Shown: positions 21,117 through 41,011, counted from the first letter of the stretch. The stretch is DNA of 64,000 bases from a virus (IMGVR_UViG_2925908680_000001), one strand, 5' to 3'. Notes: generated by a model from the sequence alone, not told the origin. Numbers and translations: made by a program.

Positions 21117-21332
21117 ATGGCTACTATCCCTACCCCAACTCATTCTGAATTTATCTGGCGTTTCTATTCCTGCCAAAAACACCTGTATATCTGCGTCATG
21201 GCTGCTACCGAAGCAGAAGCTCGTTCATACCTTCCTGAAGAACCCTGCATTTTTGCCGCACGCTTCACTCTTGATGCGATGGAGATCCTAAATTACTGGA
21301 ATCTGCCAATGAACTGCGTGGAGGTGCACTGA
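21117..21332 (+). CDS. Icd-like small protein (immI-like module 1)
   Basis: 71-aa ORF whose TGA stop overlaps the ATG of the downstream antirepressor (TGATG), the arrangement of P1 icd-ant. Confidence 0.5.
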   Translation: MATIPTPTHSEFIWRFYSCQKHLYICVMAATEAEARSYLPEEPCIFAARFTLDAMEILNYWNLPMNCVEVH

Positions 21333-22273
21333 TGAATCTGTCCATCTCTCAAAAAGCGACAATGACCAGTATTGAGATCGCGGAACTGGTAGGTAAGCGT
21401 CATGATAATGTGAAGCGTACCATTGAAGTATTAACTAAAGGTGGTGTCATTCAATTTCCTCAAATTGAGGAAATTGAAAATAAACAATCAGTTGGCCCTC
21501 GTCGATTTTCCAAGGCTTACATATTTGAAGGCGAACAAGGAAAACGAGACAGCATCATTGTCGTCGCGCAGCTCTCTCCGGAATTCACCGCCCGGCTGGT
21601 GGACCGCTGGCGCGAACTGGAGAATGCCCGGGTACAGTTAAAATCAAAAGCCGAAATTCTGGCTGAAATGGCGCAAATGCATCTTGAGCATGAACGCCGG
21701 ATCAACGCCGTAAATGCCCAGGTAGCCGAGGTATCAGCACAAGTATCGATGGTCGCTGAAACACTCGAGCAAATCAAGAAAGGCAATATTCCGGAAGGCT
21801 ACATTGGCTACCGCCAGCTGGCGGCGAAATGTGGCCTGACTGAAGCCAAATGTCGCAACCTGGTTAACGCTTTCCGGATTCCCACCGATACGCATGAGTT
21901 TTTAACTCCAGATGGTTTGCTTGCGCGACGCTCCATTGTGGCCCTGGTCCCCTTCCGGAAAGCCTTTAAGCAGGTGATGTCGGAGGCAGAACCACGCAAT
22001 AAACGCTGGTATCATCCAAAGATGGGGATGTTTCAGGCAATCCACCATCCTGTGCCTGAAAGCCCAAAGGATAATCTGTCACTACATACCGTCAGAGAGA
22101 AGATCAGGACTGGATACGCAACAGTGTGTCGTCGTTCTTCCTGGCCTGAAGGTATATGGGTGTGGCCCGAAGGTGGATCACGAAAGCACTGGCGCACCAT
22201 CCGTGACGGGAAAATCCATGCTATTGATTTAGCTCCAGAGGATGTTATTGCTATGGACTGGATTGTTAGTTAA
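21332..22273 (+). CDS. ant: antirepressor Ant (copy 1)
   Basis: N-terminal phage regulatory (pRha-type) domain; P1 Ant-like context. Confidence 0.75.
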   Translation: MNLSISQKATMTSIEIAELVGKRHDNVKRTIEVLTKGGVIQFPQIEEIENKQSVGPRRFSKAYIFEGEQGKRDSIIVVAQLSPEFTARLVDRWRELENARVQLKSKAEILAEMAQMHLEHERRINAVNAQVAEVSAQVSMVAETLEQIKKGNIPEGYIGYRQLAAKCGLTEAKCRNLVNAFRIPTDTHEFLTPDGLLARRSIVALVPFRKAFKQVMSEAEPRNKRWYHPKMGMFQAIHHPVPESPKDNLSLHTVREKIRTGYATVCRRSSWPEGIWVWPEGGSRKHWRTIRDGKIHAIDLAPEDVIAMDWIVS

Positions 22274-22282
22274 ATGCTGCAT

Positions 22283-22304
22283 CCCCGGCGACGCCGGGGA
22301 TTTA
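22283..22304 (+). terminator. hairpin after ant copy 1
   Basis: ccccggcg-a-cgccgggg palindrome after the stop; weak T-tract. Confidence 0.45.
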
Positions 22305-22332
22305 ACTGCCAAATAATCGGATTATCCGCACG

Positions 22333-22644
22333 ATGAAAAAAATAGATTTCACTTATTCTGCCGCCACACTTGAGCGGCGCTTCACCCTCATTAGAGAGTT
22401 GGAACTGTCAAAAGTCTGGTATCAAATCCTACTGGATGAAGAGTTTTCACTGATGGTTATAGCAGAAAAATTGGCTATGCCTAATGATCGGCACAAGGTC
22501 ATAGCCAGCCTCGATCTGGTGACAAACAGATACTGGGAAACAGAGGAACTACATGAGGCGGGAGTAATTCGTGACCTGATGGAGAATTCCGTTCCCCGCC
22601 GCTATCGTGCAGGGAACGGCATCTCCGTGGTTAAAGGTGTTTAA
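22333..22644 (+). CDS. hypothetical protein, 103 aa
   Basis: ORF only. Confidence 0.4.
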   Translation: MKKIDFTYSAATLERRFTLIRELELSKVWYQILLDEEFSLMVIAEKLAMPNDRHKVIASLDLVTNRYWETEELHEAGVIRDLMENSVPRRYRAGNGISVVKGV

Positions 22645-23033
22645 AGCTCACCTGCGCGCTGTTTTTCAAGCACAGATTTAACATTTGGCGCTTTCCCTTT
22701 AAAAGAATGGAAAGTGCCACATTTTTCTGTTTTAACCTCGCGCAGAGCTTCGCCATCGGCGTTCTGCCATTGATGGGATAATGTCATATCACCGCGAGAA
22801 GGAACATCCAGCGAGTACAGCGTGTAAGTTCCCCCCATCTCCGCATACTCCTGGAACACATAGCTCATTACGTCAGATTCAGTTTTTCGGTGTGCGTTAT
22901 CAACCTTATTCCCATTCAGAAATATGGCATCTGGATAGATTTTTATATCAAACCTACCGCACTTAACTTGTAAATTTCCGGCGCTCGCGATCAAAGGGAA
23001 AGACGCCAGTAAAGCAATAGCCAATCTTTTCAA
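22641..23033 (-). CDS. secreted hypothetical protein, 130 aa
   Basis: N-terminal signal peptide (MKRLAIALLASFPLIASA). Confidence 0.5.
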   Translation of the reverse strand: MKRLAIALLASFPLIASAGNLQVKCGRFDIKIYPDAIFLNGNKVDNAHRKTESDVMSYVFQEYAEMGGTYTLYSLDVPSRGDMTLSHQWQNADGEALREVKTEKCGTFHSFKGKAPNVKSVLEKQRAGEL

Positions 23034-23053
23034 TTCTGCCTCCGCTGCGTAAC

Positions 23054-23677
23054 TTATTGCCCGTATTTTTTACACCATTGCTCTGCCATTTGTTTGGCTA
23101 AAGGCCCGGCTACTGCACTGTATTCTGCTGTTTTACTTTGCACACATGAAGCAGATGGTTTTTTATTTCGCTGCTCGGTTAGTTTGCGCTCATAAGCCAT
23201 CATGCTATCGAACCCGGCAATATCACTTTGGCGAAGCATTCCCTTTTTAACCAAAAATTGCTGCCCCTCGGGCACCAGCGCAAGCATAAAAAGTGGTTGT
23301 AATAACTCACCTAATCCTTGCTGGCGATACACTTCGAATTGCTGCCATCCCTGACTTAATCTGGAAAGAGTATCTTTGGTTGAATAACCTGTTTTTGTTA
23401 TAGCTTTGTCCGTCAGATATGCTGTATATGCAAAAACGCAAAAGTCAGTTTTACCAATAAACTGAGTTCCAACAGGCCGTAATGGAATGCCCTCTCTCTT
23501 GCAAAAGTCCATAATTGCCGCTTGTGAATGATCCCCACCAGCGTTATTCATAACCTGCTGCCCTGCCCTGTATTGTGCAGGTAACGCAGTTGCATTGGCT
23601 GTATTAACAGATACGCATCCCAACATAGCCGCGAGCGCGGTCCCTAAAACCCTTAACTTCACTACACCGTCCTTCAT
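23054..23677 (-). CDS. secreted hypothetical protein, 207 aa
   Basis: Signal-peptide-like N-terminus (LRVLGTALAAMLGCVSVNTANA). Confidence 0.5.
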   Translation of the reverse strand: MKDGVVKLRVLGTALAAMLGCVSVNTANATALPAQYRAGQQVMNNAGGDHSQAAIMDFCKREGIPLRPVGTQFIGKTDFCVFAYTAYLTDKAITKTGYSTKDTLSRLSQGWQQFEVYRQQGLGELLQPLFMLALVPEGQQFLVKKGMLRQSDIAGFDSMMAYERKLTEQRNKKPSASCVQSKTAEYSAVAGPLAKQMAEQWCKKYGQ

Positions 23678-23945
23678 GTAAACAAAATGAAGTTTTATGT
23701 TACAAAAACAATCAACTACATCAACATGATTTAGGCCAAATTTCGGTCAAAAAATAAAATCCACAAAAAGTGGTTGACACTATTTTGGAAATCACAAACT
23801 GCACATAATCCATCGCGCTAACGGCTCCCGTTGAAGGTTCTTTTGACGATTAACTTTCAGCCGAAGCGCGGTAGGGAGTCATAACGCCAAAGCAGGCCGC
23901 CATGTGCGGCCTTTTTTTGTATCCGTCATCCGTGGAGGAAGGACA

Positions 23946-24599
23946 ATGGAAAAGATCGCAATATTCAGCCTGACCACCAGCAAGCCTCAAATGCTCACTG
24001 CAATACTGAAAGACGGTGCTCTCATTATTAACGAAGTAAAACCCCTTCCCGCGTCAGCATTGGAGCAAAAGCAAAAAATTCCTCCAGCCATAGCAGCCCT
24101 GCGGAAAAGCAAATTTAAGGTACTGGTAGACGAAATTACGCCAACGATCTCCGCTGGCACCGGAGCAAGCCAGGTGACTCTCAAGACCCGTCATGCCGAT
24201 GGCAGAGCAGCAATCATCGTCGGGATGGAAAGATACAGAGAGTTAAAACTCCAGAAGCTATTATCCCTGCCGCAAAATAACAAAGGTGCTTTCGAAATCC
24301 CCGACTCTATCGTTGATACCGAATACAACGGTAACGGAGAAGAAGTCTACAGGGTGAACTGGCAGGATATCAGGCCGGAGCATATTCTGATGATCCTGTG
24401 TTGCTACGCGACCGTATACCACAACGTTGCCAGTGCGGATTACGTAGAGCAGATGACCGGTACAGTCGAGAAAGAGCAAAAAACAGGCATACTCGCTTCG
24501 TTCCTTTCCATTATTGGGCATGAAAAAGTTAAAGCAGGCACCTCCCAGCCAAAGTCACTGGCTGGGAAAGAAGTTGATGAAGATACCGTGATACTTTGA
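23946..24599 (+). CDS. hypothetical protein
   Basis: ORF; start taken at the internal Met (MEKIAIF). Confidence 0.5.
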   Translation: MEKIAIFSLTTSKPQMLTAILKDGALIINEVKPLPASALEQKQKIPPAIAALRKSKFKVLVDEITPTISAGTGASQVTLKTRHADGRAAIIVGMERYRELKLQKLLSLPQNNKGAFEIPDSIVDTEYNGNGEEVYRVNWQDIRPEHILMILCCYATVYHNVASADYVEQMTGTVEKEQKTGILASFLSIIGHEKVKAGTSQPKSLAGKEVDEDTVIL

Positions 24600-24907
24600 T
24601 CACATTAGTAGCTTTGTTAACTCCCTCAACACCAGGTAGAAGAGTAACAAAAATATTGACGCGAGTATTTGAGTGGTCAATGAGGCGTTCATAAACAGAT
24701 CAATTAGCTTTAATATTTCGAAGATAACATCCATGTCATTCACTCCGTTTAATTTTTAATCTAATGCCAGCAAATGAAGCTGGCCCCCGCATAAAGATTA
24801 ATGAAAGTCACTTGTCACCAGTGAGGGGATTTATGGTGGCCTGTCTGTTTCTCGCATTTCACACCCTGCATACAGTTTCCCCCAGGTTATGACTGAGAGG
24901 CTTTGTT

Positions 24908-25237
24908 ATGGGCTATAGCAGACTCGACGATAGGTACATTGAAGACGATATTTTTCGTGCGCTGTTTCACCAGGAAATGATTAAGCGGGTATCGGAGTAT
25001 CACTCTGATAATTTCCAGTACACGATAAAGATTGATGAAGTATATCGTTCAGACCTTGCAGCCTACCGGGCGTATGGCAATGCAGATTTGCGCTGGGTAT
25101 TCCGGGTGCTGGTGGGCCATGAGTCAGAAATGGAAGAAATGCCCGCCGGGACCACGTTAACTCTTCCTGATGTGGCATGGCTGAGGAATAAGATCCGTGA
25201 TTACGCGAGCGCGGAACCGGAGATAGAAAATGCCTGA
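24908..25237 (+). CDS. hypothetical protein, 109 aa
   Basis: ORF overlapping the next gene by 8 bp, consistent with an operon. Confidence 0.4.
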   Translation: MGYSRLDDRYIEDDIFRALFHQEMIKRVSEYHSDNFQYTIKIDEVYRSDLAAYRAYGNADLRWVFRVLVGHESEMEEMPAGTTLTLPDVAWLRNKIRDYASAEPEIENA

Positions 25238-26426
25238 TTTCCTGAAAAACCAGGACGGGCGCTATATCACTGACGGCCTGTCCTCTAAGGACTTCACGCG
25301 TTTATTCGACCTTATCAGGAAAGAACAAACCCGTAAGCGCCGGCAAGCTCACCGGACGCTGACGCCAGGTAGACTGAGGAACAAATCCGCCGAAGATATT
25401 CTCAAGTTAGGGAAGAAAAAAGGCGGCACGTTCTTCACGCGAGACGACCTGAAAGGTTTCGAAAAGCTACGGAGTAAAACGCGCGAAAAATATGACAGCA
25501 AGACGGCTGGCATCACATACGCCCAGCTGGTGGCATCCAGCCAGGCAATCGATATTAAGCGTGCAAATAACGCCGTGGATGACGGATCCGGTATCAAAAG
25601 AGCTACCCCCGTATCTCTTCGCCACAATGTGATTAATATCCGCGTAGAAGCATCGGATATATCCGTCCACCAGCACCATATCGTCCGGATACGCTTTGAA
25701 GAATGGGATCAGATGGTTGATGACATCGCAGAAGACGATAAATCAGCTCTCAAAATCACTAAATCACTGTGCGCCGGGCGAGTGTCTTTCGATTGTGACT
25801 GTGGTCGTCATCAATACTGGTATCGTTACATCGCCACTGCGGGTAACTTTGCCCTGGCACCGCCAAAAGAATACGCCTATCCAAAAGTTCGCAACCCGAA
25901 GCTGCAAGGCGTCGCCTGTAAACACGTGATCCACTCAATGACGCGGTTACAGTCCGCCAGTTGGCAAATGAGTATTGCTCGTGCGCTACAAAAGGCTGCA
26001 ACGCAAATTGCATTTGGTGACGATCGCCGCCGTACAACTAAACACTTCTCAAAAGAAGACGAGAAGGAGTTTAATCGCAATCGTAGCAGTAAAACGAACG
26101 TTGAAGCCGCCAAACGCGAATGGAGGCTCTATCAGAAGCGCCAGGCAGCTTTAAGTACAAAACTGGCAAAGGACAACGGCAAGATCGACAAGCTACGTGA
26201 CCAATTGACCAGGGCCAGAAAGTTGTCAGACGCACAGAAAAAACGGGCGGCTGCAAAAGAAGCGGCCTTGCAACGTGAGAAACAGAAAAATAAGGAACTT
26301 CAGCAACGCCTTGCCGATCAGTTCGCACTGAAGAAGCAGGCGTTCATTGATGCACTGGTCATGGCAGGAACGTCACCTGAGCAAGCTGAAAAAATGTTTA
26401 TGGAGTACGTGAAGAAAGGTTCTTGA
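25230..26426 (+). CDS. hypothetical protein, 398 aa, SWIM-type zinc-finger-like motif and Lys-rich coiled-coil tail
   Basis: CDCGRHQ...CKH motif; K/R/E-rich C-terminus. Confidence 0.5.
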   Translation: MPDFLKNQDGRYITDGLSSKDFTRLFDLIRKEQTRKRRQAHRTLTPGRLRNKSAEDILKLGKKKGGTFFTRDDLKGFEKLRSKTREKYDSKTAGITYAQLVASSQAIDIKRANNAVDDGSGIKRATPVSLRHNVINIRVEASDISVHQHHIVRIRFEEWDQMVDDIAEDDKSALKITKSLCAGRVSFDCDCGRHQYWYRYIATAGNFALAPPKEYAYPKVRNPKLQGVACKHVIHSMTRLQSASWQMSIARALQKAATQIAFGDDRRRTTKHFSKEDEKEFNRNRSSKTNVEAAKREWRLYQKRQAALSTKLAKDNGKIDKLRDQLTRARKLSDAQKKRAAAKEAALQREKQKNKELQQRLADQFALKKQAFIDALVMAGTSPEQAEKMFMEYVKKGS

Positions 26427-26460
26427 TTGACAACAAAGGCGGTCATACAGACCGCCAAAC

Positions 26461-26820
26461 TCATACACCAACCAGGCTTTCAAGAGGAATGCCAAACTGG
26501 GAATGTAAACGACGAATCATAGGTAACGTTAAATTTCGTGTCCCATTTAGCACTTCGTAAACACGATTTGACTTACCAATCGCCGGTTCCAGATCCTTCA
26601 CGGTCAGCCCTTGCTGTTCCATACGGAATTTAATGGCCTCAATAGGTGATGGTGGCTCAATTGGGTAATGTTTTTTCTCGTACTCCTCAATGAGAAGACA
26701 CATAACCTCAAAGAAATCGCCTTCCGGTGTGTTCATTTCCGGTTCATTATCGAACATCGGTTCGACCGCACGCAGTGCGGCCTCATAATCTTGTTCTGTA
26801 CGGATAGGTTTAATGTTCAT
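26461..26820 (-). CDS. higA: HigA-type antitoxin (HTH)
   Basis: HTH-containing 119-aa ORF immediately downstream of a HigB-like toxin. Confidence 0.75.
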   Translation of the reverse strand: MNIKPIRTEQDYEAALRAVEPMFDNEPEMNTPEGDFFEVMCLLIEEYEKKHYPIEPPSPIEAIKFRMEQQGLTVKDLEPAIGKSNRVYEVLNGTRNLTLPMIRRLHSQFGIPLESLVGV

Positions 26821-26823
26821 GAT

Positions 26824-27126
26824 TTACTCCAGTTCTATTGTATCCGCTTCAATGGCATCGTATTCCTTATGTGTTCCAATAAACTTAACGAACATCCATC
26901 CTCGCTGATAAGCAATTGCGACAATTAACCTGTAATCATTTCCCTTAATATTGAACACCACGCGCCTGTTTTTAAGGATGCTGGCTGTCCGGTACTGTTC
27001 TTTGATCTCAGCCGGATTTTTCCAGTCAGCCTTTGTTGCTTCATCAACCCATGCCTTTAATGGCTGTTCTGCATCGGGATTCTTCGCCCAGAAATCCCTT
27101 AGTGTTTTTACCGAAATTATTTTCAT
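26824..27126 (-). CDS. higB: HigB-type toxin (RelE superfamily)
   Basis: Resembles E. coli K-12 HigB including the C-terminal THKEYD; toxin-first order typical of higBA. Confidence 0.75.
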   Translation of the reverse strand: MKIISVKTLRDFWAKNPDAEQPLKAWVDEATKADWKNPAEIKEQYRTASILKNRRVVFNIKGNDYRLIVAIAYQRGWMFVKFIGTHKEYDAIEADTIELE

Positions 27127-27229
27127 CACAGATTCCTTCTCTCTGAAAGTATAGTAGTCCCAATATGGGACAATGTAAAGCACTTTAGTCCCATGCTGGG
27201 ATATGAATTGAAATCACAATCTCCAGACA

Positions 27230-28063
27230 ATGCACCCTCGATACCTGATAAATCGACCTTTGAGGATGCTTATGGGCCGTTTTGACGAATGGTTTTCTGA
27301 CGATGCAAACCTGGCAAGTAAGGAGTCAGAACATGACAGCACGCAGAGAGAAACGCCAGCGCCGATTGAAGCGAATGCAGGAGGCGCGCCGGAACATGGC
27401 AATACCAGTTCGGATTCATTCAGCATTCTGGAAGAGCAACCCGCCGCCAAAGCTGATAGCCATGATAATTTTGCTGATAGCAACGGTGGCCTTACTCCAG
27501 ATGCTGGCGAATCAGATATAGCCATACTTCCACCTTCCCTGGCTGGCAGAGAACCAACTCCACAGCTAAAAGCACGCTATAACGGGCATAAAGCCTTTAA
27601 CGACCAAATCCGCACAGACTGGATGCTGATTATTGAATCCAGCCCAGACGCGTTTCAGGCTCTCTTATATCGACCAGATGTTGGCACATATGGGGTAGTC
27701 AGCGACGAAACAGGAGAAGAGTCATTCACTGAACTGGATAACAACCAACGCGAACTGACTTACCAGGAACCTGAAATCGTTTATGTGCTGGATAACCCGG
27801 ACGGGCGTGACTCTTTCCATGCGATTGACGCAGACGGTGAGCAGGATGGCTTAACCGATGATGTTCTGATTCTGCGTATTGCAGCAAATAACGTCCCCGT
27901 CGGCTCAATTCTTGAATGGAATGAAGAGATGGTAAACGGCGTAGCCCGCCGCTGGTGGTACGTGCACCGTATTTTTAGCTACGGCACACAGCATGTTGGT
28001 TCGCTTTACTACTGCATACCAGCCAGGAATTTTGATACGACTCAAAACGGAGTGATCGAATGA
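27230..28063 (+). CDS. acidic hypothetical protein, 277 aa
   Basis: ORF; strongly D/E-rich. Confidence 0.45.
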   Translation: MHPRYLINRPLRMLMGRFDEWFSDDANLASKESEHDSTQRETPAPIEANAGGAPEHGNTSSDSFSILEEQPAAKADSHDNFADSNGGLTPDAGESDIAILPPSLAGREPTPQLKARYNGHKAFNDQIRTDWMLIIESSPDAFQALLYRPDVGTYGVVSDETGEESFTELDNNQRELTYQEPEIVYVLDNPDGRDSFHAIDADGEQDGLTDDVLILRIAANNVPVGSILEWNEEMVNGVARRWWYVHRIFSYGTQHVGSLYYCIPARNFDTTQNGVIE

Positions 28064-28827: not shown

Positions 28828-28830
28828 TAA

Positions 28831-30520: not shown

Positions 30521-31426
30521 ATGAGATCAGTCGCTTTCAAAAATATCTTCATCTATCGTCTTTCACGCGAAGTTAGCTGGGATACTGCAGCGGTAAACGC
30601 TGCTCTTGGCAAATTTGTGTTTACCCCATGCGGTTCTCAGGACATGGTTAAAGCTGGTTGGACGCCTGTTCTTGGCAACAACCTCACACATGAATACCAG
30701 GGTTTTCTTCTGATACAGCATAAACGAGAGGAAAAAATCCTACCTTCTCAAGTGCTCAAAGAAGAGTTACAGAAAAAAATCCTGACACTTGAAGAAGAGC
30801 AAGACAGAAAGCTGAAGAAGACCGAAAAAGATTCGCTGAAGGATGAAGTGCTTCACTCTCTTCTTCCTCGTGCTTTCACGAGAAAATCACTCGCCAAAAT
30901 CCTGATCGACCGCAGCAACCATCTGGTATTCGTTGAGGCAAGCAGCGCCAAAAAGGCAGAGGACCAGCTGGCTTTATTGCGAAAATCGCTCGGCAGCCTG
31001 CCTGTCATTCCATTCACACCACGCGAACCGCTGGAAATTACAATGACCGAGTGGTTTAAAAACGGCTTCCCTGCCGGATTTACAGCAGGTGAAGACGCCA
31101 CATTAAAGGGTCTGCTCGATAATGGTGGTGCCGTTCGCTGCAACAAAGTTGATCTACAGTCCGACGAGATTATGTCTCACATTGAGGCGGGGAAAGTAGC
31201 TACGACCGTTGCAATTAACTGGATGGAACGCGCGTCGTTCAGAGTCAACGATGATATGAGTATCAAAGCCCTGACATTCTGTGATGATCTCTATGACCAG
31301 AACGACGATATCGACCGGGAGGATGTAGCACAACGATTTGATGCTGATTTCGTGCTCTTTACGGGCGAATTATCTGCACTGTTTAACGCGCTGGTGGAGG
31401 CCATTGGCGGTGAAGCAGAACGATAA
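30521..31426 (+). CDS. rdgC: recombination-associated protein RdgC homolog
   Basis: Collinear with E. coli RdgC (FKNxxxYRLSRE, FTPCGSQDM, KEEKILPSxV, KKTEKDSLKDEVLHSLLPRAF, LALLRKSLGSLPV). Confidence 0.85.
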   Translation: MRSVAFKNIFIYRLSREVSWDTAAVNAALGKFVFTPCGSQDMVKAGWTPVLGNNLTHEYQGFLLIQHKREEKILPSQVLKEELQKKILTLEEEQDRKLKKTEKDSLKDEVLHSLLPRAFTRKSLAKILIDRSNHLVFVEASSAKKAEDQLALLRKSLGSLPVIPFTPREPLEITMTEWFKNGFPAGFTAGEDATLKGLLDNGGAVRCNKVDLQSDEIMSHIEAGKVATTVAINWMERASFRVNDDMSIKALTFCDDLYDQNDDIDREDVAQRFDADFVLFTGELSALFNALVEAIGGEAER

Positions 31427-32988: not shown

Positions 32989-33020
32989 AAAACGCCGCAG
33001 TAGCGGCGTTTACTTTTTTA
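32989..33020. terminator. bidirectional rho-independent terminator
   Basis: aacgccgc-agta-gcggcgtt hairpin with T/A runs on both sides, between convergent dam and glnS. Confidence 0.55.
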
Positions 33021-33036
33021 TGTGGCGAAATACCTA

Positions 33037-34698
33037 TTAACCTAACTTCGCCCAGGTATCACGCAGCCCAACGGTGCGGTTAAATACCGGTTTTTCCGCC
33101 GTAGAATGGCGGCTGTCGAGGCAGAAATAACCTTCACGCTCAAACTGGAATGCTTTACCCGCTACCGCTTCTTTCAGCGACGGTTCAGCAAAACCCTGTT
33201 TGATCACCAGCGATTCCGGGTTAATCACCGACAGGAAATCATCCGCAGCACCTGGGTTCGGCACGCTGAACAGACGATCGTACAGGCGGATTTCAACCGG
33301 CAGCGCATGTGCCGCGCTCACCCAGTGAATAACGCCTTTCACTTTACGACCATCTGCCGGATCTTTGCTTAAGGTGTCGGCGTCATAAGTACAGAAGATG
33401 GTGGTGATATTGCCTTCGGCATCTTTCTCCACGCGTTCAGCCTTAATGACGTAAGCATTACGCAGACGCACTTCTTTACCCAGCACCAGACGTTTGTACT
33501 GCTTGTTAGCTTCTTCTCGGAAATCGGCGCGGTCGATCCAAATCTCACCGCTAAACGGCACCTGACGGTTACCCATTTCCGGTTTGTTTGGATGGTTCGG
33601 CATGGTGACCATTTCGCCTTCGCCCTGATAGTTTTCGATGACCAGTTTCACCGGATCGATAACCGCCATTGCGCGCGGCGCATTTTCGTTGAGATCTTCA
33701 CGGATGCAGGATTCCAGCGACGCCATCTCAATGGTGTTGTCCTGCTTGGTCACGCCGATGCGTTTGCAGAACTCACGAATAGAAGCCGCAGTGTAACCAC
33801 GACGACGCAGACCGGAAATGGTCGGCATACGCGGGTCATCCCAGCCTTCAACGTGCTTGTCGGTCACCAGCAGGTTCAGCTTACGCTTGGACATCACAGT
33901 GTATTCCAGATTCAGGCGCGAGAATTCGTACTGGCGCGGGTGAACAGGAATGGTGATGTTGTCCAGCACCCAGTCGTAAAGGCGACGGTTGTCCTGGAAC
34001 TCAAGCGTACACAGAGAGTGCGTAATACCTTCCAGCGCATCGCTGATGCAGTGGGTGAAGTCGTACATCGGGTAGATGCACCACTTGTTGCCAGTCTGGT
34101 GGTGTTCAGCAAACTTAATGCGATACAGCACCGGATCGCGCATCACGATAAACGGCGAAGCCATGTCGATTTTCGCACGCAGGCAGGCTTTACCTTCTTC
34201 AAAACCACCGGCACGCATTTTTTCGAACAGCGCCAGGTTCTCTTCAACGCTGCGATCGCGGTACGGGCTGTTTTTACCCGGCTGCGTCAGGGTGCCGCGG
34301 TATTCGCGGATCTGTTCCGGCGTCAGTTCGTCAACATACGCCAGGCCTTTGTTGATCAGTTCAACAGCATAGGCGTGGAGCTGATCAAAATAATCGGAGG
34401 AGTAACGGATGTTGCCAGACCAGTGAAAACCTAACCATTCAACGTCGTTTTTAATCGACTCGACGTACTCGATATCTTCTTTTACCGGGTTAGTGTCGTC
34501 GAAACGCAGGTTGCACTGGCCTTTATAGTCCTGGGCGATCCCGAAGTTCAGGCAGATAGATTTCGCATGACCAATATGCAGATAGCCATTCGGTTCCGGC
34601 GGGAAACGGGTATGTACTGTGGTGTGCTTACCACTGGCCAGATCTTCATCGATGATCTGACGAATAAAGTTAGTCGGGCGGGCTTCTGCCTCACTCAT
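33037..34698 (-). CDS. glnS: glutaminyl-tRNA synthetase
   Basis: 553-aa translation matches E. coli GlnS from memory with only a handful of substitutions (HIGH and VMSKR motifs present). Confidence 0.95.
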
Positions 34699-34966
34699 TG
34701 TGGATTCCTCAAAGCGTAAACAACGTATAACAGCGTATGATCTTATAAGCCGAATAGGCTGACAACCACTAGTTGATTAGAAATTGCTTTCTATCGTTAT
34801 TTCAATAATGAGCTTTTTCATTAAGCCCACTTTTGCGCATAAGTAAATTAATGACAAATGGTACACAATTGGAACCAAAAAGGATGTAAAGGTGCACCAA
34901 ATTAGTGGTGTATTGGTGCACCTTTGGTTCAAGACTTTTTAAGTTCTAAAACCAACCTGAAAGACT

Positions 34967-35254
34967 TTATTTTGCTTCCTCAGACTCCGCTAACATGAGG
35001 ATAGCATGGCGGATCATATTCAATTTGCTACGATTATGCTTTTTACTTAACGCATCAAGTACCTGGTACTCGTATTCATTGAAACCAACACGAATAGATT
35101 TAAAATCACGTGGAGCGTCCTTATCGAGCACTTTGTTGTCTTCTGGTTGCTCACCCGGCACCAAATCAGCCTTACTTGCAAAATCCTCAATTCGGCGTTC
35201 AAGATCGGGGTCTTTTACTTCGGGGGCTTTTACCGATTTACGAGGCTTAATCAC
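34967..35254 (-). CDS. small partition DNA-binding protein (ParG/ParB-like)
   Basis: 95-aa ORF immediately downstream of, and overlapping, a ParA-type ATPase gene. Confidence 0.5.
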   Translation of the reverse strand: MIKPRKSVKAPEVKDPDLERRIEDFASKADLVPGEQPEDNKVLDKDAPRDFKSIRVGFNEYEYQVLDALSKKHNRSKLNMIRHAILMLAESEEAK

Positions 35255-35888
35255 TTAATAACTCCTTAACCAACATCTGGATTTCACCTTTAGCTTTCCC
35301 GTTGTCCATCTCAACAACGCCCTTCCCTTCAGCCATGCAATCGCGGTAAACCTTACGATCACGAATGATGGTTTTCAGCAACTTCAGTTGCGGATATTCA
35401 GCCAGGTACTCTTTGGCCTCATTGGTTTCATTCACAACCGGATTGGATGGGGCCATTGTTAAGACTGCGAACGCCTTAATGCTAGGATTAGGCATCAGGT
35501 CCAAAGCCTCTTCAAACACTTCAACAAAGTGTGCCAGCGTGTCTAAATCTGGTTGAGATGGTCTGAATGGGACCAACACAATATCTGCAGCGGTTATGCC
35601 TGTACGCATCTCTTTGCTATCGCGCCCGGCTGTATCAACAACTACAAATTCATAACGCTTATCCAGATCGAGAAGTGTTTCTCGAATATTACCAAACTTC
35701 TGGACACAATGAATTACAGGAGAAACCTCTGCCGTGTTACGGTCAGCGGCCCAGCGGGCAGCTGTTCCTTGCTTGTCTGCATCTAGTAACACTACATCCT
35801 TATTTTCGCGGGCAAGCTCCGCACAGATGTTTACGCTTGTGGTTGATTTTCCACAGCCACCTTTTTGGCTGACTACCAATATAATCAT
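35247..35888 (-). CDS. parA: ParA/ParF-type partition ATPase
   Basis: Deviant Walker A (KGGCGKST) and ParA family layout. Confidence 0.85.
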   Translation of the reverse strand: MIILVVSQKGGCGKSTTSVNICAELARENKDVVLLDADKQGTAARWAADRNTAEVSPVIHCVQKFGNIRETLLDLDKRYEFVVVDTAGRDSKEMRTGITAADIVLVPFRPSQPDLDTLAHFVEVFEEALDLMPNPSIKAFAVLTMAPSNPVVNETNEAKEYLAEYPQLKLLKTIIRDRKVYRDCMAEGKGVVEMDNGKAKGEIQMLVKELLSD

Positions 35889-35889
35889 A

Positions 35890-36170
35890 TCCGTTCCTCG
35901 GTGTTATTTTGGTATCAAACTGGTTCCAAACAGAAGCCTTATTGATGCGGTTTTGGCTCTATAGTGGAGTCATTATGCTTTGCAAAAGTATAACACTAAT
36001 CATTCTAAATTTGCCCTCTGTTGCATCCTGTTTAACACGAAATCAGCACTAAATTGGAACCAGATACAAAGCAGCACCATAACAACACCGTTTTGGTACT
36101 AAAAGAGCACCAAACTAGAATCATAACGGTATAAAAAAGGCTGCAAATTGCAGCCTTTGAAGATGTAGAT
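35890..36170. repeat. centromere-like repeat region (TTGGTAC / TGGTTCCAAA / GGTGCACC motifs)
   Basis: Multiple direct and inverted short repeats upstream of parA; related motifs also at about 34860-34930. Confidence 0.35.
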
Positions 36171-36173
36171 TGG

Positions 36174-36545
36174 TTAATCAGGGAGTGAGTTTGCCAAATT
36201 CTGAGCAGAGCGGCTTTTCGGAACGCCTGGTTTTTTTACATCCTCTGAGACAGAGGTTTTTCCTTCAGTAGGTTCCCGAACTTCATGCGAAATTTCAAGA
36301 AACGAAACCAGCATTTTTCTGATCACTTCAGAGCTATTATCACCGGATAAAAGCGATGCCAACATGGGAGGTAATCTGCTATCAACCTCGCCAAGAGCGA
36401 TACCTGCAAGCATCGCAGTGCGCACCATATCATTGCGATCACTTAATGGATGGGCCTCAATTTTTGCCACAGCATATTGCTCACTGGCGTAAGCGTTAAG
36501 ATCTGAACGAAGATAAAACATTATTTTTCGACGTTCTTTAGACAT
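36174..36545 (-). CDS. ParR/StbB-like partition adaptor
   Basis: Small ORF immediately downstream of the actin-like ATPase gene. Confidence 0.5.
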   Translation of the reverse strand: MSKERRKIMFYLRSDLNAYASEQYAVAKIEAHPLSDRNDMVRTAMLAGIALGEVDSRLPPMLASLLSGDNSSEVIRKMLVSFLEISHEVREPTEGKTSVSEDVKKPGVPKSRSAQNLANSLPD

Positions 36546-36555
36546 GGCAACCTCA

Positions 36556-37515
36556 TCAACCGATAGATTTTAGACCATATACAAGAGCAAGTTGTGGATC
36601 ATCAGCAACGAAAAACCTATCGTCACGAATGTTTACCTGCTCACGGATAGCATCAGCAACAAGCGGCGCGCCGCCACCAATTACCATAACATGTGTGTAT
36701 CCTTTGAAATCACTGATCACATCCAGTACGCGTGTACGGAGTCGCTCTATGCTTGACGAAATGGCTTTCTTAACATCATCAATAGCAGACGGATCGTTAA
36801 TATTGTCGGTCAGATAATCCTCATCATCTCGATTAATGATTAATTGATCGACGTTATAATTAGAGGTTTCGGTATTAGCTTTTGCAAGTGCCTGTCTGAC
36901 CTCTTTAGTTACCAGCGAAACGCCGAGATTAGAATCGCCAAATACGCGAGAAACGGCGGTCATTTGCCCGGCAACCATCGACACATCCAGAGTAGTCCCG
37001 CCAAGATCAACAATAAGCACAGAATGCGCTGGCACAAGGCTGTCGCACAGACCGATCCCTGCGGGTATTGACTCCGGGCGCACAGTCACTTTTTTGATAG
37101 TAAAAACCTGACCTTTGTTAAGGGTGACTGGTCGCATCAGGCTGGCCTTTTTCCGCTCAATATTTTTCATGTTGTATTGTGCGTCGTCGTCATAAAACTC
37201 TGCCAGTGGCAACGTGACTACTATTTCCACTTCTTGAGGCTCAATGCCACTTGTAAGCAGGGCATGATGAACAGCAAGCACATTAAGCGGGCTGTATTGC
37301 CATTCAACGTTATTCGTTGGCAGAACATCCGGCGAGATCAAGTCATATGAATATTTTTCGTCATCAATGATGTAGTTAAACGTTTTTCCTGCGCCAAATG
37401 TGGCGGACCATCCACGTTTAAAACTGTTCGGGCAGATATGGGTTCGAGTTTCCCCGTCTTGTTCCCACAGCATTTTGATATTGGTAGAACCATCGTCGAT
37501 AAAAATGCGCATCAT
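36556..37515 (-). CDS. parM: ParM/StbA actin-like segregation ATPase
   Basis: Actin-fold motifs (IFIDDGSTNIK, VLIVDLGGTTLD, VMVIGGGA); start taken at the internal MMRIF. Confidence 0.85.
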   Translation of the reverse strand: MMRIFIDDGSTNIKMLWEQDGETRTHICPNSFKRGWSATFGAGKTFNYIIDDEKYSYDLISPDVLPTNNVEWQYSPLNVLAVHHALLTSGIEPQEVEIVVTLPLAEFYDDDAQYNMKNIERKKASLMRPVTLNKGQVFTIKKVTVRPESIPAGIGLCDSLVPAHSVLIVDLGGTTLDVSMVAGQMTAVSRVFGDSNLGVSLVTKEVRQALAKANTETSNYNVDQLIINRDDEDYLTDNINDPSAIDDVKKAISSSIERLRTRVLDVISDFKGYTHVMVIGGGAPLVADAIREQVNIRDDRFFVADDPQLALVYGLKSIG

Positions 37516-37610
37516 ATTGCTCCACTTCTGAGACACATTTGAGAAAGAATTGAATCTTATATGAGAAAACAAAATAAAACCAGAAGTTGAGAGAGCAAAA
37601 AGCACCAGAT

Positions 37611-37666
37611 TTGAGACAAACCAGAGACAAACTAGAGACACACTAGAGACAAGTATGAGAAACAAG
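37611..37666. repeat. parC-like iterated repeats
   Basis: Four to five tandem copies of about 11 bp (ccagagacaaa, ctagagacaca, ctagagacaag) upstream of parM. Confidence 0.5.
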
Positions 37667-37723
37667 AAATCTTAAGAGTGAAAATCACAAAGTGGAGAAG
37701 ATTTAAGAAAAAGGAGGTGTTAG

Positions 37724-38008
37724 ATGAGTGCAATAGCGACCTGTGACACAGTTTGTTCCGGTCATGGAGGATTCCCTCCGCGACCTGTAGCAGAAACAGT
37801 TTCCTGGTTTACCGTAAATGGAAAGCCAGTTGTTGTAGATGGTGCCATGTTTCCCAGTCACACTGACGGTAACAGTGCACATCCAGGGGCAGCTGTATCG
37901 ACGCGAGTATGGTTTTCGATAGGTGGAAAGGGAGTTGTCTGTGTAGGCGATCCGCTTTCTTGTGGTTCTGTTATCGCCAACGGCGAGGATATTTTTCAGG
38001 TTGCATAA
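37724..38008 (+). CDS. PAAR-like domain protein, 94 aa
   Basis: Gly/Cys-rich small protein with PAAR-like spacing (CSGHGG, GDPLSCGSV). Confidence 0.45.
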   Translation: MSAIATCDTVCSGHGGFPPRPVAETVSWFTVNGKPVVVDGAMFPSHTDGNSAHPGAAVSTRVWFSIGGKGVVCVGDPLSCGSVIANGEDIFQVA

Positions 38009-38814
38009 TGCTTGATTCAATAGGTGAAGTTAAAGCCTTCAAAATTCTGTCAGATGCCGGTATCTCTACACCAGAATCTATAACCATAAGCCGGGCAGCT
38101 TCTGTAAAAGCCTCATCGCTCGCCAGCGCCATACAGGGAATAGTTCACGCCGATAAAACCTATCCTGATTCTGTTTCGGCCTGGACTACTCAATTGCTTG
38201 GCTTTTCTGAACAGCTCAATGAGGCCAGCAAAGCGTCTTCATCACTGGCTGATTCTCTTTCCCCATACACCAAGCCATCAGAGCTGTTACAGATGAAGAT
38301 TGGCTGGGAATGCTACGCAAAAGGTAACGAGCTGACCCCCATACCTGCTTTCGCCCTTGTTGAGGGAATGGGGAATGTTTCCATTCCGCAATCTCTAACG
38401 GACGCATTGACGGCGCTAAAACTTGATGCTCTGAAAACCGCCATGAACGCCATTAACGCAAAAATTGAAGCTGCCGGAAGTGCTGGTGGTGGTGAAAGCA
38501 ATGGTGGACAGGGTGGTGCTGGGGGCGCTCAGGCTCCAGTCATTACTCAGGATGAAATTGATGCTTTACGGGAAGCAGTGACAGCCGCCGAAGTTTTACT
38601 CTCCGAAATTAACTCAGCAAGTGAGGGTGTCGTAGCCCTTACAGGTCGCATTAAAACGTCAACCACTCAGGCAACCAAAGGTTTAGAGAACGCTGTCGCC
38701 ATCACGTTAACTGGTTCTCTACTGGATGATGCAGTAATGAGTCCGGCAATCAGTTTAATCATGCCACAAGGCGTTATCGATGCGCTCCAAAAGAACACCA
38801 AAAAGGAACCATAG
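38008..38814 (+). CDS. hypothetical Ala/Ser/Gly-rich protein
   Basis: ORF from the ATG at 38008 (MLDSIGEV); low-complexity G/S linker. Confidence 0.45.
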   Translation: MLDSIGEVKAFKILSDAGISTPESITISRAASVKASSLASAIQGIVHADKTYPDSVSAWTTQLLGFSEQLNEASKASSSLADSLSPYTKPSELLQMKIGWECYAKGNELTPIPAFALVEGMGNVSIPQSLTDALTALKLDALKTAMNAINAKIEAAGSAGGGESNGGQGGAGGAQAPVITQDEIDALREAVTAAEVLLSEINSASEGVVALTGRIKTSTTQATKGLENAVAITLTGSLLDDAVMSPAISLIMPQGVIDALQKNTKKEP

Positions 38815-38869
38815 AAACACCACTTAGGCACACAAAAGGATGTAAATTGGTACATGTTTAACACCAAAA

Positions 38870-39343
38870 ATGAACCTGGAGAGGATGGTTTTGAAAAAGA
38901 TAATTTTGATTGTAAATGCGCTTTTAGCCATTTCTGGAATTTACCGAACAACGACGGCAGTTATCGAACACATCAGGTATGTCCGATCGCTTGAAGACTC
39001 AAAATCACAACTGGAAAGCACGAACAACACGCTTTCTACCGCATTACAGTTAAGTGAGAACGCTCGCTCAGCCATGCTGACCGAAAACGAAAGAATTAAA
39101 GCACTGGAAAAGGAGTACCAGCGCAAAACAGCAGAACTGAATGCCAACCTAATCAAACAACGAGAGGAAAGCCAGAATGAAATCACTCGCCTTGAAAATA
39201 CGTTGCGCCGTGCTGGGATTAACGATGTGCGTGTACCTGATGACGTTATCAGGATGCAGCGGGAACGGGCAAAAGCCATCAACCAGCGTGCCAGTGAAAA
39301 TTACCGTAGAAGCCACCAGCAAGCCGCAGGCAAATCTGATTGA
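38870..39343 (+). CDS. i-spanin (Rz-like)
   Basis: N-terminal transmembrane segment then coiled-coil periplasmic domain. Confidence 0.6.
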   Translation: MNLERMVLKKIILIVNALLAISGIYRTTTAVIEHIRYVRSLEDSKSQLESTNNTLSTALQLSENARSAMLTENERIKALEKEYQRKTAELNANLIKQREESQNEITRLENTLRRAGINDVRVPDDVIRMQRERAKAINQRASENYRRSHQQAAGKSD

Positions 39344-39503
39344 TTACTCCCCTTGTTTAGTGCCAGAGGACACGCCAGTGCTGTTAAACAAGTATCCGAC
39401 ATACGCTGAACAGTTATTCAGCACGATCGACGAATGCAACCAACGAAACGCACTGAATAACCAAAGAAACAGGGAGATTTGGGAAGGGGACAGGCGGCAG
39501 TGA
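39177..39503 (+). CDS. o-spanin lipoprotein (Rz1-like), overlapping the Rz frame
   Basis: Lipobox LSGC after a signal peptide; +1-frame gene overlapping the 3' end of Rz. Confidence 0.55.
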   Translation: MKSLALKIRCAVLGLTMCVYLMTLSGCSGNGQKPSTSVPVKITVEATSKPQANLIDYSPCLVPEDTPVLLNKYPTYAEQLFSTIDECNQRNALNNQRNREIWEGDRRQ

Positions 39504-39869
39504 GCTTCACAAAAGCTACATAATTATTTTGCGTTAGAAAAATAATTTGAATTTTCGAACATAAATAATAAAATAAATCATCAAAAATTTGATGTTGATC
39601 TTCCATGTTTTCAGGCTTATATTCACGCCGTCGTAGCAAATTCTGCGACCGGGTTTAGCAGCCTGAATGATTGTGCGGACAACCGCAGATTTCCGATATT
39701 GCGGTATTTTTGTGTCCGTAAACCGCGTTACGCCCGAATTATGGTGGGGCGTGATGGGGAGGCTTCGGCCTGCTGGTTTCACAATCGCCAGTCTGCTAAC
39801 CCCGTCACGTCCTGCCACCCGTTTAGCAGCGGGTAGCAGGTTGTTAAACCTGATTGTGAGGCCGTAACT

Positions 39870-40085
39870 ATGGTTAATGCCAATCCTTGCCCTCGCCCGG
39901 AATTTATCTGGCGCTTTTATTCCTGCACAAAACACACCTACATCAGCGTAATGGCAGCTACTGAGGCTGAAGCGCGTTCATTTCTTCCTACAGATCCGTG
40001 CATTTTTGCCGCTCGCTTTAAACCCGATGCTCTGGACGTTTTGACCTACTGGAACCGCCCAATGAACTGCGTGGAGGTGCACTGA
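39870..40085 (+). CDS. Icd-like small protein (immI-like module 2)
   Basis: Paralog of the 21117-21332 product; stop overlaps the ant start. Confidence 0.5.
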   Translation: MVNANPCPRPEFIWRFYSCTKHTYISVMAATEAEARSFLPTDPCIFAARFKPDALDVLTYWNRPMNCVEVH

Positions 40086-41011
40086 TGAATCTGTCCATCT
40101 CTCAAAAAGTGACAATGACAAGTATTGAGATCGCGGAGCTGGTGGGAAGTCGTCATGACAAGGTGAAACAATCTATTGAACGACTGGCGGGACGAGGTGT
40201 AATAGCTTTTCCCCCAATGGGGGAGAAGCCCACCGCAGGCCGCCCGGCGAGCTATTACGTCTTTGAAGGCGAGCAAGGCAAGCGCGACAGCATTGTTGTC
40301 GTCGCACAGCTTTCTCCCGAATTTACCGCCCGACTGGTGGACCGCTGGCGCGAACTGGAGAGTGCCAAAGTACAGTTAAAATCAAAGGCCGAAATCCTGG
40401 CCGAAATGGCGCAAATGCATCTTGAGCATGAACGCCGGATCAACGCCGTAAATGCCCAGGTAGCCGAGGTATCAGCACAAGTGTCCAGGGTCACTGAAAC
40501 ACTTGAGCAGATCAAGAAAGGCAATATTCCGGAAGGCTACATTGGCTACCGCCAGCTGGCGGCGAAATGTGGCCTGACTGAAGCCAAATGTCGCAACCTG
40601 GTTAACGCTTTCCGGATTCCCACCGATACGCATGAGTTTTTAACTCCAGATGGTTTGCTTGCGCGACGCTCCATTGTGGCCCTGGCCCCCTTCCGGAAAG
40701 CCTTTAAGCAGGTGATGTCGGAGGCAGAACCACGCAATAAACGCTGGTATCATCCAAAGATGGGGATGTTTCAGGCAATCCACCATCCTGTGCCTGAAAG
40801 CCCAAAGGATAATCTGTCACTACATACCGTCAGAGAGAAGATCAGGACTGGATACGCAACAGTGTGTCGTCGTTCTTCCTGGCCTGAAGGTATATGGGTG
40901 TGGCCCGAAGGTGGATCACGAAAGCACTGGCGCACTATCCGAGATGGGAAAATCCATGCTATTGATTTAGCTCCAGAGGATATTGTTGCTACGGACTGGA
41001 TTGTTAGTTAA
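40085..41011 (+). CDS. ant: antirepressor Ant (copy 2)
   Basis: C-terminal roughly 250 aa nearly identical to copy 1; N-terminal roughly 60 aa divergent. Confidence 0.75.
   Translation: MNLSISQKVTMTSIEIAELVGSRHDKVKQSIERLAGRGVIAFPPMGEKPTAGRPASYYVFEGEQGKRDSIVVVAQLSPEFTARLVDRWRELESAKVQLKSKAEILAEMAQMHLEHERRINAVNAQVAEVSAQVSRVTETLEQIKKGNIPEGYIGYRQLAAKCGLTEAKCRNLVNAFRIPTDTHEFLTPDGLLARRSIVALAPFRKAFKQVMSEAEPRNKRWYHPKMGMFQAIHHPVPESPKDNLSLHTVREKIRTGYATVCRRSSWPEGIWVWPEGGSRKHWRTIRDGKIHAIDLAPEDIVATDWIVS

Follow-up and report, generated by a model that had tools for sequence, protein, structure and literature searches.

Two immI-type icd-ant cassettes with different predicted antisense RNA specificities on a phage D6-like plasmid prophage

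Introduction

Why should one phage-plasmid carry the same kind of antirepressor operon twice, and are the two copies a simple duplication, a pair of recombining repeats, or two separate immunity controls? The question is raised by a stretch of viral DNA of 64,000 nucleotides (nt) (IMGVR_UViG_2925908680_000001; the whole of it is called the window in the following), which holds two icd-ant gene pairs resembling those of the immI immunity region of phages P1 and P7. An earlier, sequence-only reading had placed the two pairs about 18.7 kb apart, and they are indeed found there, both intact and with a spacing of 18.74 kb. We propose that they belong to two complete and intact immI-type cassettes, here called A and B, each of which places an Ant-like regulator under the control of its own antisense RNA, with no cross-reaction expected between the two. 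We consider this account quite probable.

By sequence comparison, the window is about two thirds of a plasmid prophage of the phage D6 type. Collinear blastn blocks with 90-99% identity to D6 run over most of it and include c1, cre/lox, ref, the tail genes, glnS, the partition loci, the capsid gene, repA and the tail fibres. The c1 region is 99% identical to its D6 counterpart by blastn, and the D6 segment with repL falls outside the window.

Anatomy of the Two Cassettes

The elements of the two cassettes follow one another in the same order (Table 1): a promoter-like site, an a1/b1 element, the C4 RNA, a leader with the boxes a2 and b2 in which b2 lies over the ribosome site of icd, then icd, the coupled ant gene and a hairpin. 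The annotated a1, b1, c4, a2 and b2 features of P1 served as the guide for extracting the boxes, which were found by script. Since the RNA elements, icd and ant are all present, both copies are complete immI-type cassettes, which goes beyond the mere duplication of a gene. All four open reading frames (ORFs) of icd and ant are uninterrupted and full-length; neither copy is a pseudogene, a case for which the earlier reading had allowed. In both cassettes, the stop codon of icd is joined to the start codon of ant by a TGATG overlap, which suggests that the two genes are translationally coupled.

A proximal promoter-like site ending in TATATT stands just before the a1/b1 element in both cassettes. 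In cassette A it reads TTGCGC-18-TATATT by eye; in cassette B, a scan placed it at 39595-39623, with another promoter-like site at 39547-39574. P1 has a second c4 promoter, P1c4 (the former P51b of the P1 annotation), which would be the analogue of these proximal sites. The a1/b1 element of cassette A is assigned by Rfam to isrK (RF01394; 62.5 bits, gathering score 50), a match in sequence and structure that includes the terminator, whose hairpin at 20909-20925 is followed by a T run; the element of cassette B is assigned to c4-a1b1. The similarity of A and B ends a few bases past the ant stop codon, except for a hairpin kept in both. The two hairpins (within 22274-22303 and 41012-41041) have the same shape and differ in the loop and one stem pair (CCCCGGCG/ACG/CCGGGG versus CCCCGGCC/AGG/CCGGGG), and neither has the strong T run that the terminator scan looks for. 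As a side observation on the C4 genes, a 39-residue ORF annotated in RefSeq as an “ash family protein” (at 45052-45171 of locus L006, which is p702_18_3, and at 1980-2099 of both L009 and L011) sits almost wholly in an A-type C4 gene. It is probably an RNA gene that was called as a protein.

Table 1. Coordinates of the cassette elements, the direct repeat and the candidate operators in the window.
Feature	Position	Strand	Remarks
Candidate D6-type C1 operator	20300-20316	+	AATTAGTTTTCTAACAT; precedes two small ORFs, then cassette A
Cassette A, a1/b1 target element (IsrK-type short RNA)	20852-20930	+	a1 TTGGAAC, b1 GCAAAAGG; ends in an intrinsic terminator
Cassette A, C4 antisense RNA	20975-21062	+	loops b' CCTTTTGC and a' GTTCCAA; Rfam C4 (RF01695) 76.7 bits, gathering score 45
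Cassette A, leader	21063-21116	+	a2 TTGGAAC, b2 GCAAAAGG; b2 overlaps the icd Shine-Dalgarno sequence AAGGAGG
icd A	21117-21332	+	71 residues; NCBIfam phage_ICD_like 49.4 bits (cutoff 25); phrog_1426 4e-41
ant A	21332-22273	+	313 residues; Rha-type N-terminal winged helix, long helix, second winged-helix-like domain, C-terminal tail (predicted)
Direct repeat, copy A	21535-22273	+	739 bp; partner 40273-41011
Hairpin after ant A	22285-22303	+	CCCCGGCG-ACG-CCGGGG, then ATTT; read from the sequence
Cassette B, extent against D6-type “empty” loci	39489-41062	+	replaces about 0.49 kb; homology of the flanks to the D6, Iso and FSIS loci stops at 39488 and starts again at 41063
Candidate C1 operator, cassette B promoter region	39531-39547	-	abuts the promoter-like sites 39547-39574 and 39595-39623
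Cassette B, a1/b1 element	39617-39669	+	a1 TTAGCAG, b1 GATTGTG, as in P7; Rfam c4-a1b1 54.4 bits, gathering score 46.7
Cassette B, C4 antisense RNA	39737-39822	+	Rfam C4 70.5 bits, gathering score 45; 77-nt core as in P7 C4
Cassette B, leader	39823-39869	+	a2 TTAGCAG, b2 GATTGTGA over the icd ribosome site
icd B	39870-40085	+	71 residues; first ~110 nt part of a P7/P1-like stretch
ant B	40085-41011	+	308 residues; body as in ant A, variable patch different
Direct repeat, copy B	40273-41011	+	from repeat finder and alignment

The similarity between the two cassettes is very uneven along their length. In MAFFT alignments, the RNA segments are 46% (a1/b1 element), 49% (C4) and 41% (leader) identical. 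The icd genes, which had been judged about 65% identical, are indeed divergent, though at the higher figures of 74.5% in nucleotides and 69% in amino acids. In ant, the identity is 93% over nt 1-60, drops to 56% over nt 61-200, and rises again to 87% over nt 201-330 and to 97.7% (598/612) from nt 331 to the end; the two Ant proteins are 90.3% identical. The last portion makes up most of the direct repeat, which is 95.8% identical in the alignment (708/739) with a longest perfect run of 249 bp, and for which the repeat finder gave start-to-start spacings of 18,738 and 18,753 bp. The two repeat copies had been described as nearly identical; this is right for the last 612 bp and slightly generous for the first ~130 bp, with 87%. 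Copy A lies where it had been placed, and copy B begins at 40273 rather than 40275.

RNA Specificity and Covariation of the Boxes

The C4 loops match all four targets within their own cassette exactly, through complements of 7-8 nt, in A as well as in B. The boxes of A and B agree at only 6 of 14 positions, while those of P1 (GTTAGTG and TTGACAG) and P7 agree at 10 of 14, and the heteroimmunity of P1 and P7 is reported to be due to small differences in this C4/box region (PMC6906374). With the boxes of A and B differing at 8 of 14 positions, each C4 should silence its own cassette only. The specificity of cassette B is that of P7: 77 of the 77 nt of the C4 core and all 14 box positions are identical, within a stretch (39610-39979, through the first ~110 nt of icd B) that is 91% identical to P7 and 89% to P1. 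Cassette B should be interchangeable with P7 immI. Calculated energies of the loop-leader duplexes, which disregard intramolecular structure, are -21 to -26 kcal/mol for cognate pairs; cross-pairing reaches 53-68% of the cognate energy between A and B, 68-76% between P1 and P7, and 100% for B on P7. The earlier proposal of two immI-like modules of different specificity is borne out in this respect, since the C4 RNAs and their targets differ, as does a hypervariable patch in the N-terminal part of Ant.

The agreement of the boxes (a1 with a2, b1 with b2, and each with its own loop) is not limited to the window. It was found in 14 modules from the window, D6, P1, P7 and four plasmids, in the 3 modules of pNCYU-26-73-5, and, in the IMG/VR database, in 28 of 28 A-type modules and in 112 of 112 modules of the P1 backbone with full flanks; the scan of IMG/VR with an icd motif yielded A-type modules only. 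Near-identical alleles are more telling, and for these we write W_A and W_B for the cassettes of the window, p702_A and p702_B for the modules of plasmid p702_18_3, and D6_A for the D6 module. W_B and p702_B differ in 25 of 501 aligned columns, and 12 of the 25 form three 4-nt clusters, one each at b1, b' and b2. Similarly, each of the three b sites (b1, b' and b2) has 2 nt changed between W_A and p702_A, and each of the three a sites (a1, a' and a2) has 2 nt changed between W_A and D6_A. Such coordinated, compensatory triple changes are evidence that the three-way pairing is functional.

The a and b boxes assort freely, and their combinations are independent of the type of Ant encoded downstream. 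On the P1-type backbone in IMG/VR, 2 a alleles and 7 b alleles occur in 12 combinations, and the A-type modules add 4 further ones. The P1-backbone C4 genes at the IMG/VR loci L045-L164 always have matching targets, with up to four modules on one 97-kb contig (L059, L094, L142, L164). These modules are followed by at least three unrelated types of Ant, namely P1 Ant, a Rha protein of 235 residues, and a type of ~370 residues marked by “MRTSLVTREEM”.

The Ant Protein

The N-terminus of Ant matches the Pfam family Phage_pRha (PF09669), with 37.3 bits (4e-9) in copy A, above the cutoff of 29.9, and 27.0 bits, just below it, in copy B. Over the full length, the two copies match phrog_63, “anti-repressor Ant”, at 2e-61 and 3e-61. 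A homologue search returned 5,088 proteins. Identity is 75-98% for the best 120, of which almost every named one goes under “Rha family transcriptional regulator”. In an alignment of 41 sequences, the variation is concentrated at residues 22-62, where 15 distinct variants occur that are themselves mosaic; the entropy is 1.0-1.6 bits there and 0-0.3 bits at residues 63-100 and 141-313. At the nucleotide level the patch is saturated, with 50-60% identity over 46 codons.

An AlphaFold2 (AF2) model of Ant, with a mean predicted local distance difference test (pLDDT) score of 63.7, is confident only for residues ~10-215 and falls below 50 over residues 218-313. It has an N-terminal winged helix (10-66), helices at 67-101 and 106-149, and a second winged-helix-like unit at 157-204. 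The recognition helix and wing predicted for the first unit fall within the variable patch. The earlier remark that the Ant N-termini differ between the copies therefore holds, and can be narrowed down to a hypervariable patch in the N-terminal winged helix. In p702_B the exchange goes further: an ORF6N domain stands in place of the N-domain and the body is unchanged. From these alignments, the Ant effector is best described as a modular regulator with an exchangeable hypervariable head. A Foldseek search of the model against the PDB gave nothing better than E = 0.05, with weak matches to MarR-type folds, and adds only the words “winged helix”. In Pfam at E values up to 10, nothing was found for the C-terminal 76 residues of Ant, nor for Icd; a DUF2829/Tad2-like tail, suspected from a pattern in the sequence, found no support in that search and was dropped.

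Proposed Mechanism and Comparison with Known Systems

The precedent for the mechanism is immI of P1 (PMC8201110), in the annotation of which a2/b2 are the sites of C4 repression of icd-ant translation. By analogy, one proximal promoter would transcribe the a1/b1 element with its terminator-like hairpin, C4, the a2/b2 leader, icd and ant. The loops a' and b' of the processed C4 would pair with a2/b2 and block the translation of icd and hence the expression of ant, while the upstream a1/b1, an IsrK-like short RNA in cassette A, may pair with the C4 loops as a decoy or activator that titrates C4. Because the boxes differ, the two units would be independent channels into one kind of effector. Two benefits can be imagined: with more types of C4, more rivals could be silenced in their antirepressor operons, and at least one Ant channel of the element itself would escape silencing by a co-resident P1-, P7- or D6-like element. 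Cassette B, in particular, is expected to fall silent in the presence of a resident P7 and, conversely, to shut off the icd-ant of an incoming P7.

The cassettes resemble immI of P1 and P7 in the order a1/b1, c4, a2/b2, icd, ant, in a C4 that is a member of the Rfam family, in the position of b2 over the icd ribosome site, and in a homologous icd (56-64% identical in amino acids), to which the exact P7 C4 and boxes are added in cassette B. They are unlike immI in that Ant is of the Rha type here and Ant1/2 in P1, that the internal ant2 start is absent, that kilA-repL does not follow, and that there are two cassettes rather than one. The comparison with P1 and P7 immI suggested by the earlier reading is therefore favorable for the features at the RNA level and for icd, and fails for the effector, since this Ant is not detectably homologous to Ant1/2 of P1. 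As far as can be judged from the sequences, the cassettes work like immI but with an effector from a different protein family.

Closer to home, orf83/82 of D6 is the orthologue of cassette A, at the same locus between ref and pmgF and with 91.7% nucleotide identity across the ant A region, but its a box is TTGAGAC and not TTGGAAC. The second module of D6 lies beside repL, whereas cassette B, with its P7 specificity, occupies a locus that is not used for a module in D6. By its sequence, cassette B is a leader and icd 5' end of P7 specificity joined to an ant body of the D6 type.

In the Salmonella prophage Gifsy-1, the IsrK RNA from an a1/b1-like element activates in trans the translation of a small ORF coupled to the antirepressor-like gene anrP (PMC4825925). 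This system, IsrK/orf45/AnrP, has in common with the present one an element that scores as isrK and carries a terminator, a short ORF upstream of an antirepressor-like gene and translationally coupled with it, and, downstream of IsrK, a processed RNA that is its complement. It differs in that the short ORF overlaps the C4-like RNA region, that icd is absent, and that the output is the antiterminator AntQ; moreover, activation in trans by IsrK was demonstrated there, while for cassette A it would follow by analogy only. The CI RNA of P4 with seqA and seqC is a more distant parallel, compared here from the literature. It, too, is a processed antisense RNA with complementary targets up- and downstream on one transcript, and is counted as a structural relative (PMC4825925), but it acts through premature termination of the transcription of replication genes, and an icd-ant output is absent.

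Candidate C1 Operators

A 17-mer, AATTAGTTTTCTAACAT, occurs with its variants at 8 sites in the window against 0.25 expected (1915-1931, 2003-2019, 3325-3341, 16074-16090, 19648-19664, 20300-20316, 39531-39547 and 41466-41482). Two of these precede c1. Others lie in front of ref, between ref and the small ORFs that lead up to cassette A, at the promoter of cassette B, and upstream of the gene adjoining the capsid gene. In D6, the 17-mer precedes both c1 and repL and is also found at the promoter of the module next to repL (locus C), there in the same orientation as the site of cassette B. The P1 annotation has C1 operators at c4, kilA-repL and c1, and the C1-controlled promoter ahead of its immI operon is known as Op51. 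The consensus of the P1 operator itself has no match in the window with up to 3 mismatches, and C1 of the element (865-1902, minus strand) is 21% identical to C1 of P1. Given the positional parallel with the operator map of P1, the 17-mer is probably the D6-type C1 operator, and both cassettes appear to be wired to the element's own D6-type C1 through these candidate sites.

Modules in Related Elements and Recombination

Two such modules on one element had been thought unusual, a view that the relatives do not sustain. D6 has two, orf83/82, the orthologue of copy A, and a c4-icd-ant module beside repL (orf19/orf18) with the boxes TTGACAG and ACTTACG, according to its annotation and Rfam. There are three modules in p702_18_3, at locus A, locus B and the repL locus, the last with the exact specificity of P1, and again three in pNCYU-26-73-5; NZ_CP122828 has two, of which one lies at locus A and the other next to repA, and 17 contigs of IMG/VR carry 2-4. 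In the D6-like plasmid pYU39_89, a further region with homology to the antisense RNA and icd has been remarked upon (PMC6799933). A tblastn search with Icd found 1,131 places in 683 plasmids of PLSDB; the sampled D6-like records have 2 icd places, and those with a B-type Icd have 3. The whole element probably has three cassettes.

A copy at locus B is less common. A cassette is present there in only about ten complete E. coli plasmids, where Ant has the ORF6N N-terminal domain, and dozens more plasmids match the flanks only; a B-type Icd at 95% identity or more is found in 13 of the 683 icd-bearing plasmids. The 84 plasmids that cover at least 80% of a 21-kb stretch had at one point been taken as a sign that both modules are conserved, an idea rejected after the locus-specific search, in which most relatives have the flanks of B only. 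Four relatives compared here, and D6, have a different filler of ~0.5 kb at this locus (orf53/54 in D6). Cassette B is absent from the closest backbones, among them NZ_CP066033, which is 99.2% identical at locus A and 99.3% at the flanks of B. The unit 39533-41041 recurs beside repA in NZ_CP122828, and this copy, together with the limits of the flank homology, makes cassette B a discrete, relocatable unit of 1.5 kb. From this distribution, it was either recently gained by the present lineage or lost by its nearest relatives. As to the other locus, the locus-A ant of p702_18_3 (L006 44108-44818) is flagged by the Prokaryotic Genome Annotation Pipeline as a pseudogene with a “missing C-terminus”, yet the frame is open for 313 residues; judged by that frame, the flag is an annotation artefact, not decay.

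The ant bodies at the different loci do not appear to have evolved in isolation from one another. Over the 3' 609 nt, ten full-length ant genes are 92-99.5% identical and do not sort by locus: pairs of A and B diverge by 2-4%, and A orthologues among themselves by up to 8%. The two ant copies in NZ_CP122828 are 99.3-100% identical over the full gene. In the window, the mismatches between the repeat copies concentrate at the edges, and the core (21773-22197) has 1 mismatch in 425 nt. Four sites within this core set B apart from its locus orthologue p702_B, and at each of them B has the state of A. In the last 73 nt of the repeat, by contrast, B equals p702_B and differs from A at six sites, at which A equals the A copies of other plasmids. 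The Fisher probability for this contrast (4/4 against 0/6 sites in the A state) is ~0.005. We read this as a short gene-conversion tract between A and B in the ant body. It means that the repeats do recombine, and that the visible outcome is conversion. The suspicion that the region is a recombined one is supported: a P7-type leader makes B a mosaic, the closest backbones do not have the cassette, and B has the conversion tract in common with A. It would seem that the direct repeat is a common ant body, which recombination carries from cassette to cassette, between several loci as well as between elements, while diversification affects the RNA boxes and the N-terminal recognition patch.

The other expected outcome of recombination between direct repeats is deletion. 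RecA-dependent deletion of the intervening block is mechanistically possible, and two genes with links to RecA lie close by: that of a Ref-family RecA-dependent nuclease (19727-20305) directly upstream of cassette A, and that of the RecA inhibitor RdgC (30521-31426) within the block flanked by the repeats. Ref and RdgC could modulate recombination between the repeats. According to Pfam, the block holds HigB and a helix-turn-helix antitoxin, RdgC, a Dam-type D12 methylase, GlnS, a ParA-like protein and ParM/ParR, in agreement with the gene content named for it before (higBA, rdgC, dam, glnS and both partition loci); by synteny with D6, it also holds mat and the tail and baseplate genes 26, 25, 7, 24, 6 and 5 (P1 names). 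The junction predicted for a deletion between A and B, used as a synthetic query, was present in one place in none of the 72,556 plasmids in PLSDB, where the best coverage of 70% is locus A alone; since few plasmids carry B, the missing deletion product is weak evidence. A deletion would keep repA but remove the tail and baseplate genes, both partition systems and HigBA, so its product should be defective and unstable. With repA outside the block, the excised circle would have no replicon, and the loss of the antitoxin gene should be selected against.

Alternative Explanations

The repeats could in principle be the whole point of the arrangement, by driving a RecA-dependent excision of the 18.7-kb block that gives deletion derivatives or a programmed rearrangement. 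A repeat of 0.74 kb with the identity and the perfect run described above is ample for RecA, Ref and RdgC are encoded beside and inside the block, and the conversion tract shows that the two copies interact. Still, the search for the junction in PLSDB came back empty, although B is too rare for this to be more than a weak test, and the consequences just listed, a defective product, cells poisoned by the loss of HigA, and a circle without a replicon, speak against it; we regard this explanation as very improbable. Somewhat less remote, but in our view still unlikely, is that cassette B is a redundant passenger, recently acquired by recombination with another phage-plasmid and heading for decay or loss, so that only cassette A and the expected repL-adjacent module matter. 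The rarity of B-type Icd and the absence of B from the closest backbones fit this idea well, and D6 manages without the cassette. On the other hand, all parts of B (promoter-like sites, a1/b1, C4, a2/b2, icd and ant) are intact and mutually consistent, and about ten complete E. coli plasmids have the cassette at this locus and one more has it elsewhere, with compensated b boxes in each. An unrepressed ant would be costly, and cassette B must therefore stay functional as a unit.

A question of a different kind is what Ant does once it is made. The “Ant” proteins may be DNA-binding regulators of lytic development of the Rha/Roi type, in which case the two cassettes would provide two DNA-binding specificities, each gated by its own antisense RNA. 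The Phage_pRha match, the database names of the homologues, the two winged-helix-like domains of the model with its weak MarR-type fold matches, the variation over the predicted recognition helix and wing, the ORF6N swap in p702_B and the undetected homology to P1 Ant1 are all what one would expect of such a protein. The best family match is nonetheless phrog_63, “anti-repressor Ant” (family names being annotations), and the place behind c4-icd belongs in P1 and P7 to proven antirepressors, and in Gifsy-1 to AnrP. We see the DNA-binding regulator as a possibility of lesser weight, and Ant may also bind both the repressor and DNA; a DNA-binding regulator would alter the effector step only and leave the antisense logic as it is.

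The preferred reading, that of two independently gated immI-type cassettes, has its own difficulties, and these should be put together in one place. On the side of the effector, BLASTP finds no detectable homology of Ant to P1 proteins (E = 0.2 against Ant1 and 0.75 against KilA), and the two winged-helix-like domains themselves suggest that Ant may be a DNA-binding regulator rather than a binder of the repressor. On the side of the RNA, the orthogonality of A and B in vivo is expected from complementarity, for which P1/P7 is the only experimental calibrator, and in the duplex calculation the C4 of D6_A scores as fully cognate on the leader of W_A, despite the different a boxes. Among the 24 pairs of modules located within one element, none has identical specificity, but the chance probability of this is ~0.12-0.15 for the P1-backbone pairs, so that the result is underpowered and not significant; some such pairs do have one box in common, as modules B and C of pNCYU-26-73-5, which share b. 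The assignment of the operators is positional, and the nearest candidate to cassette A is ~550 bp upstream of it. Finally, with a C1 so unlike that of P1, the Ant of P7 may not act on this prophage at all, which weakens the defence half of the proposed benefits, and “escape” may outweigh “defence”.

Other Features of the Element

Two further features of the window concern the tail fibres. The region 58812-59777 has four tandem repeats of 222 nt (74 codons) with 78-85% identity, with which D6 aligns through a single 222-nt unit; the fibre gene thus appears to have expanded an internal domain. The tail-fibre segment also contains inverted repeats, one at 60714-60773/63914-63973 (60 nt, 92%) and the other at 61751-62005/62382-62636 (255 nt, 71%). 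These are consistent with a Cin-type invertible segment carrying alternative fibre and assembly genes, as in the D6 annotation (cixL/cixR).

Implications

It is tempting to look at the modules of the window as samples from something larger. We offer, as a tentative idea only, that P1-like and D6-like phage-plasmids draw on one common pool of C4 “immunity barcodes”, made combinatorially from independent a and b boxes, and that by stacking 2-4 channels the elements perform an RNA-based recognition of competitors. The setting would be one in which the C1 repressors are very different, as in the one P1-like/D6-like pair compared (21% identity), and the types of Ant effector are mostly different as well. 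A resident would silence the antirepressor of an incoming element if the two had a barcode in common, and the incomer would escape with at least one barcode absent from the resident. A new barcode would come about when three short boxes (target, loop and target) are replaced in concert, possibly with other boxes serving as templates for conversion, and cassette B, with a P7 barcode and a D6-type effector, would be a case of barcode transfer between clusters. The stacking of modules as such is well documented. The wider regularities, that is, the boxes common to P1-like and D6-like elements, the triple changes, the occurrence of as many as four modules together, and a recombining body that carries a hypervariable head, may go beyond what is written down.

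What had looked like a duplicated ant can thus be resolved into two complete cassettes that would be independently gated, one of which has the exact specificity of P7, and the stacking of such cassettes is normal in this family of phage-plasmids. The ~150 modules with perfect covariation at three sites are a ready set of natural, and probably orthogonal, pairs of antisense repressors and targets. They also provide a testable model for the mutual inclusion and exclusion of co-resident phage-plasmids, which are often carriers of resistance genes.

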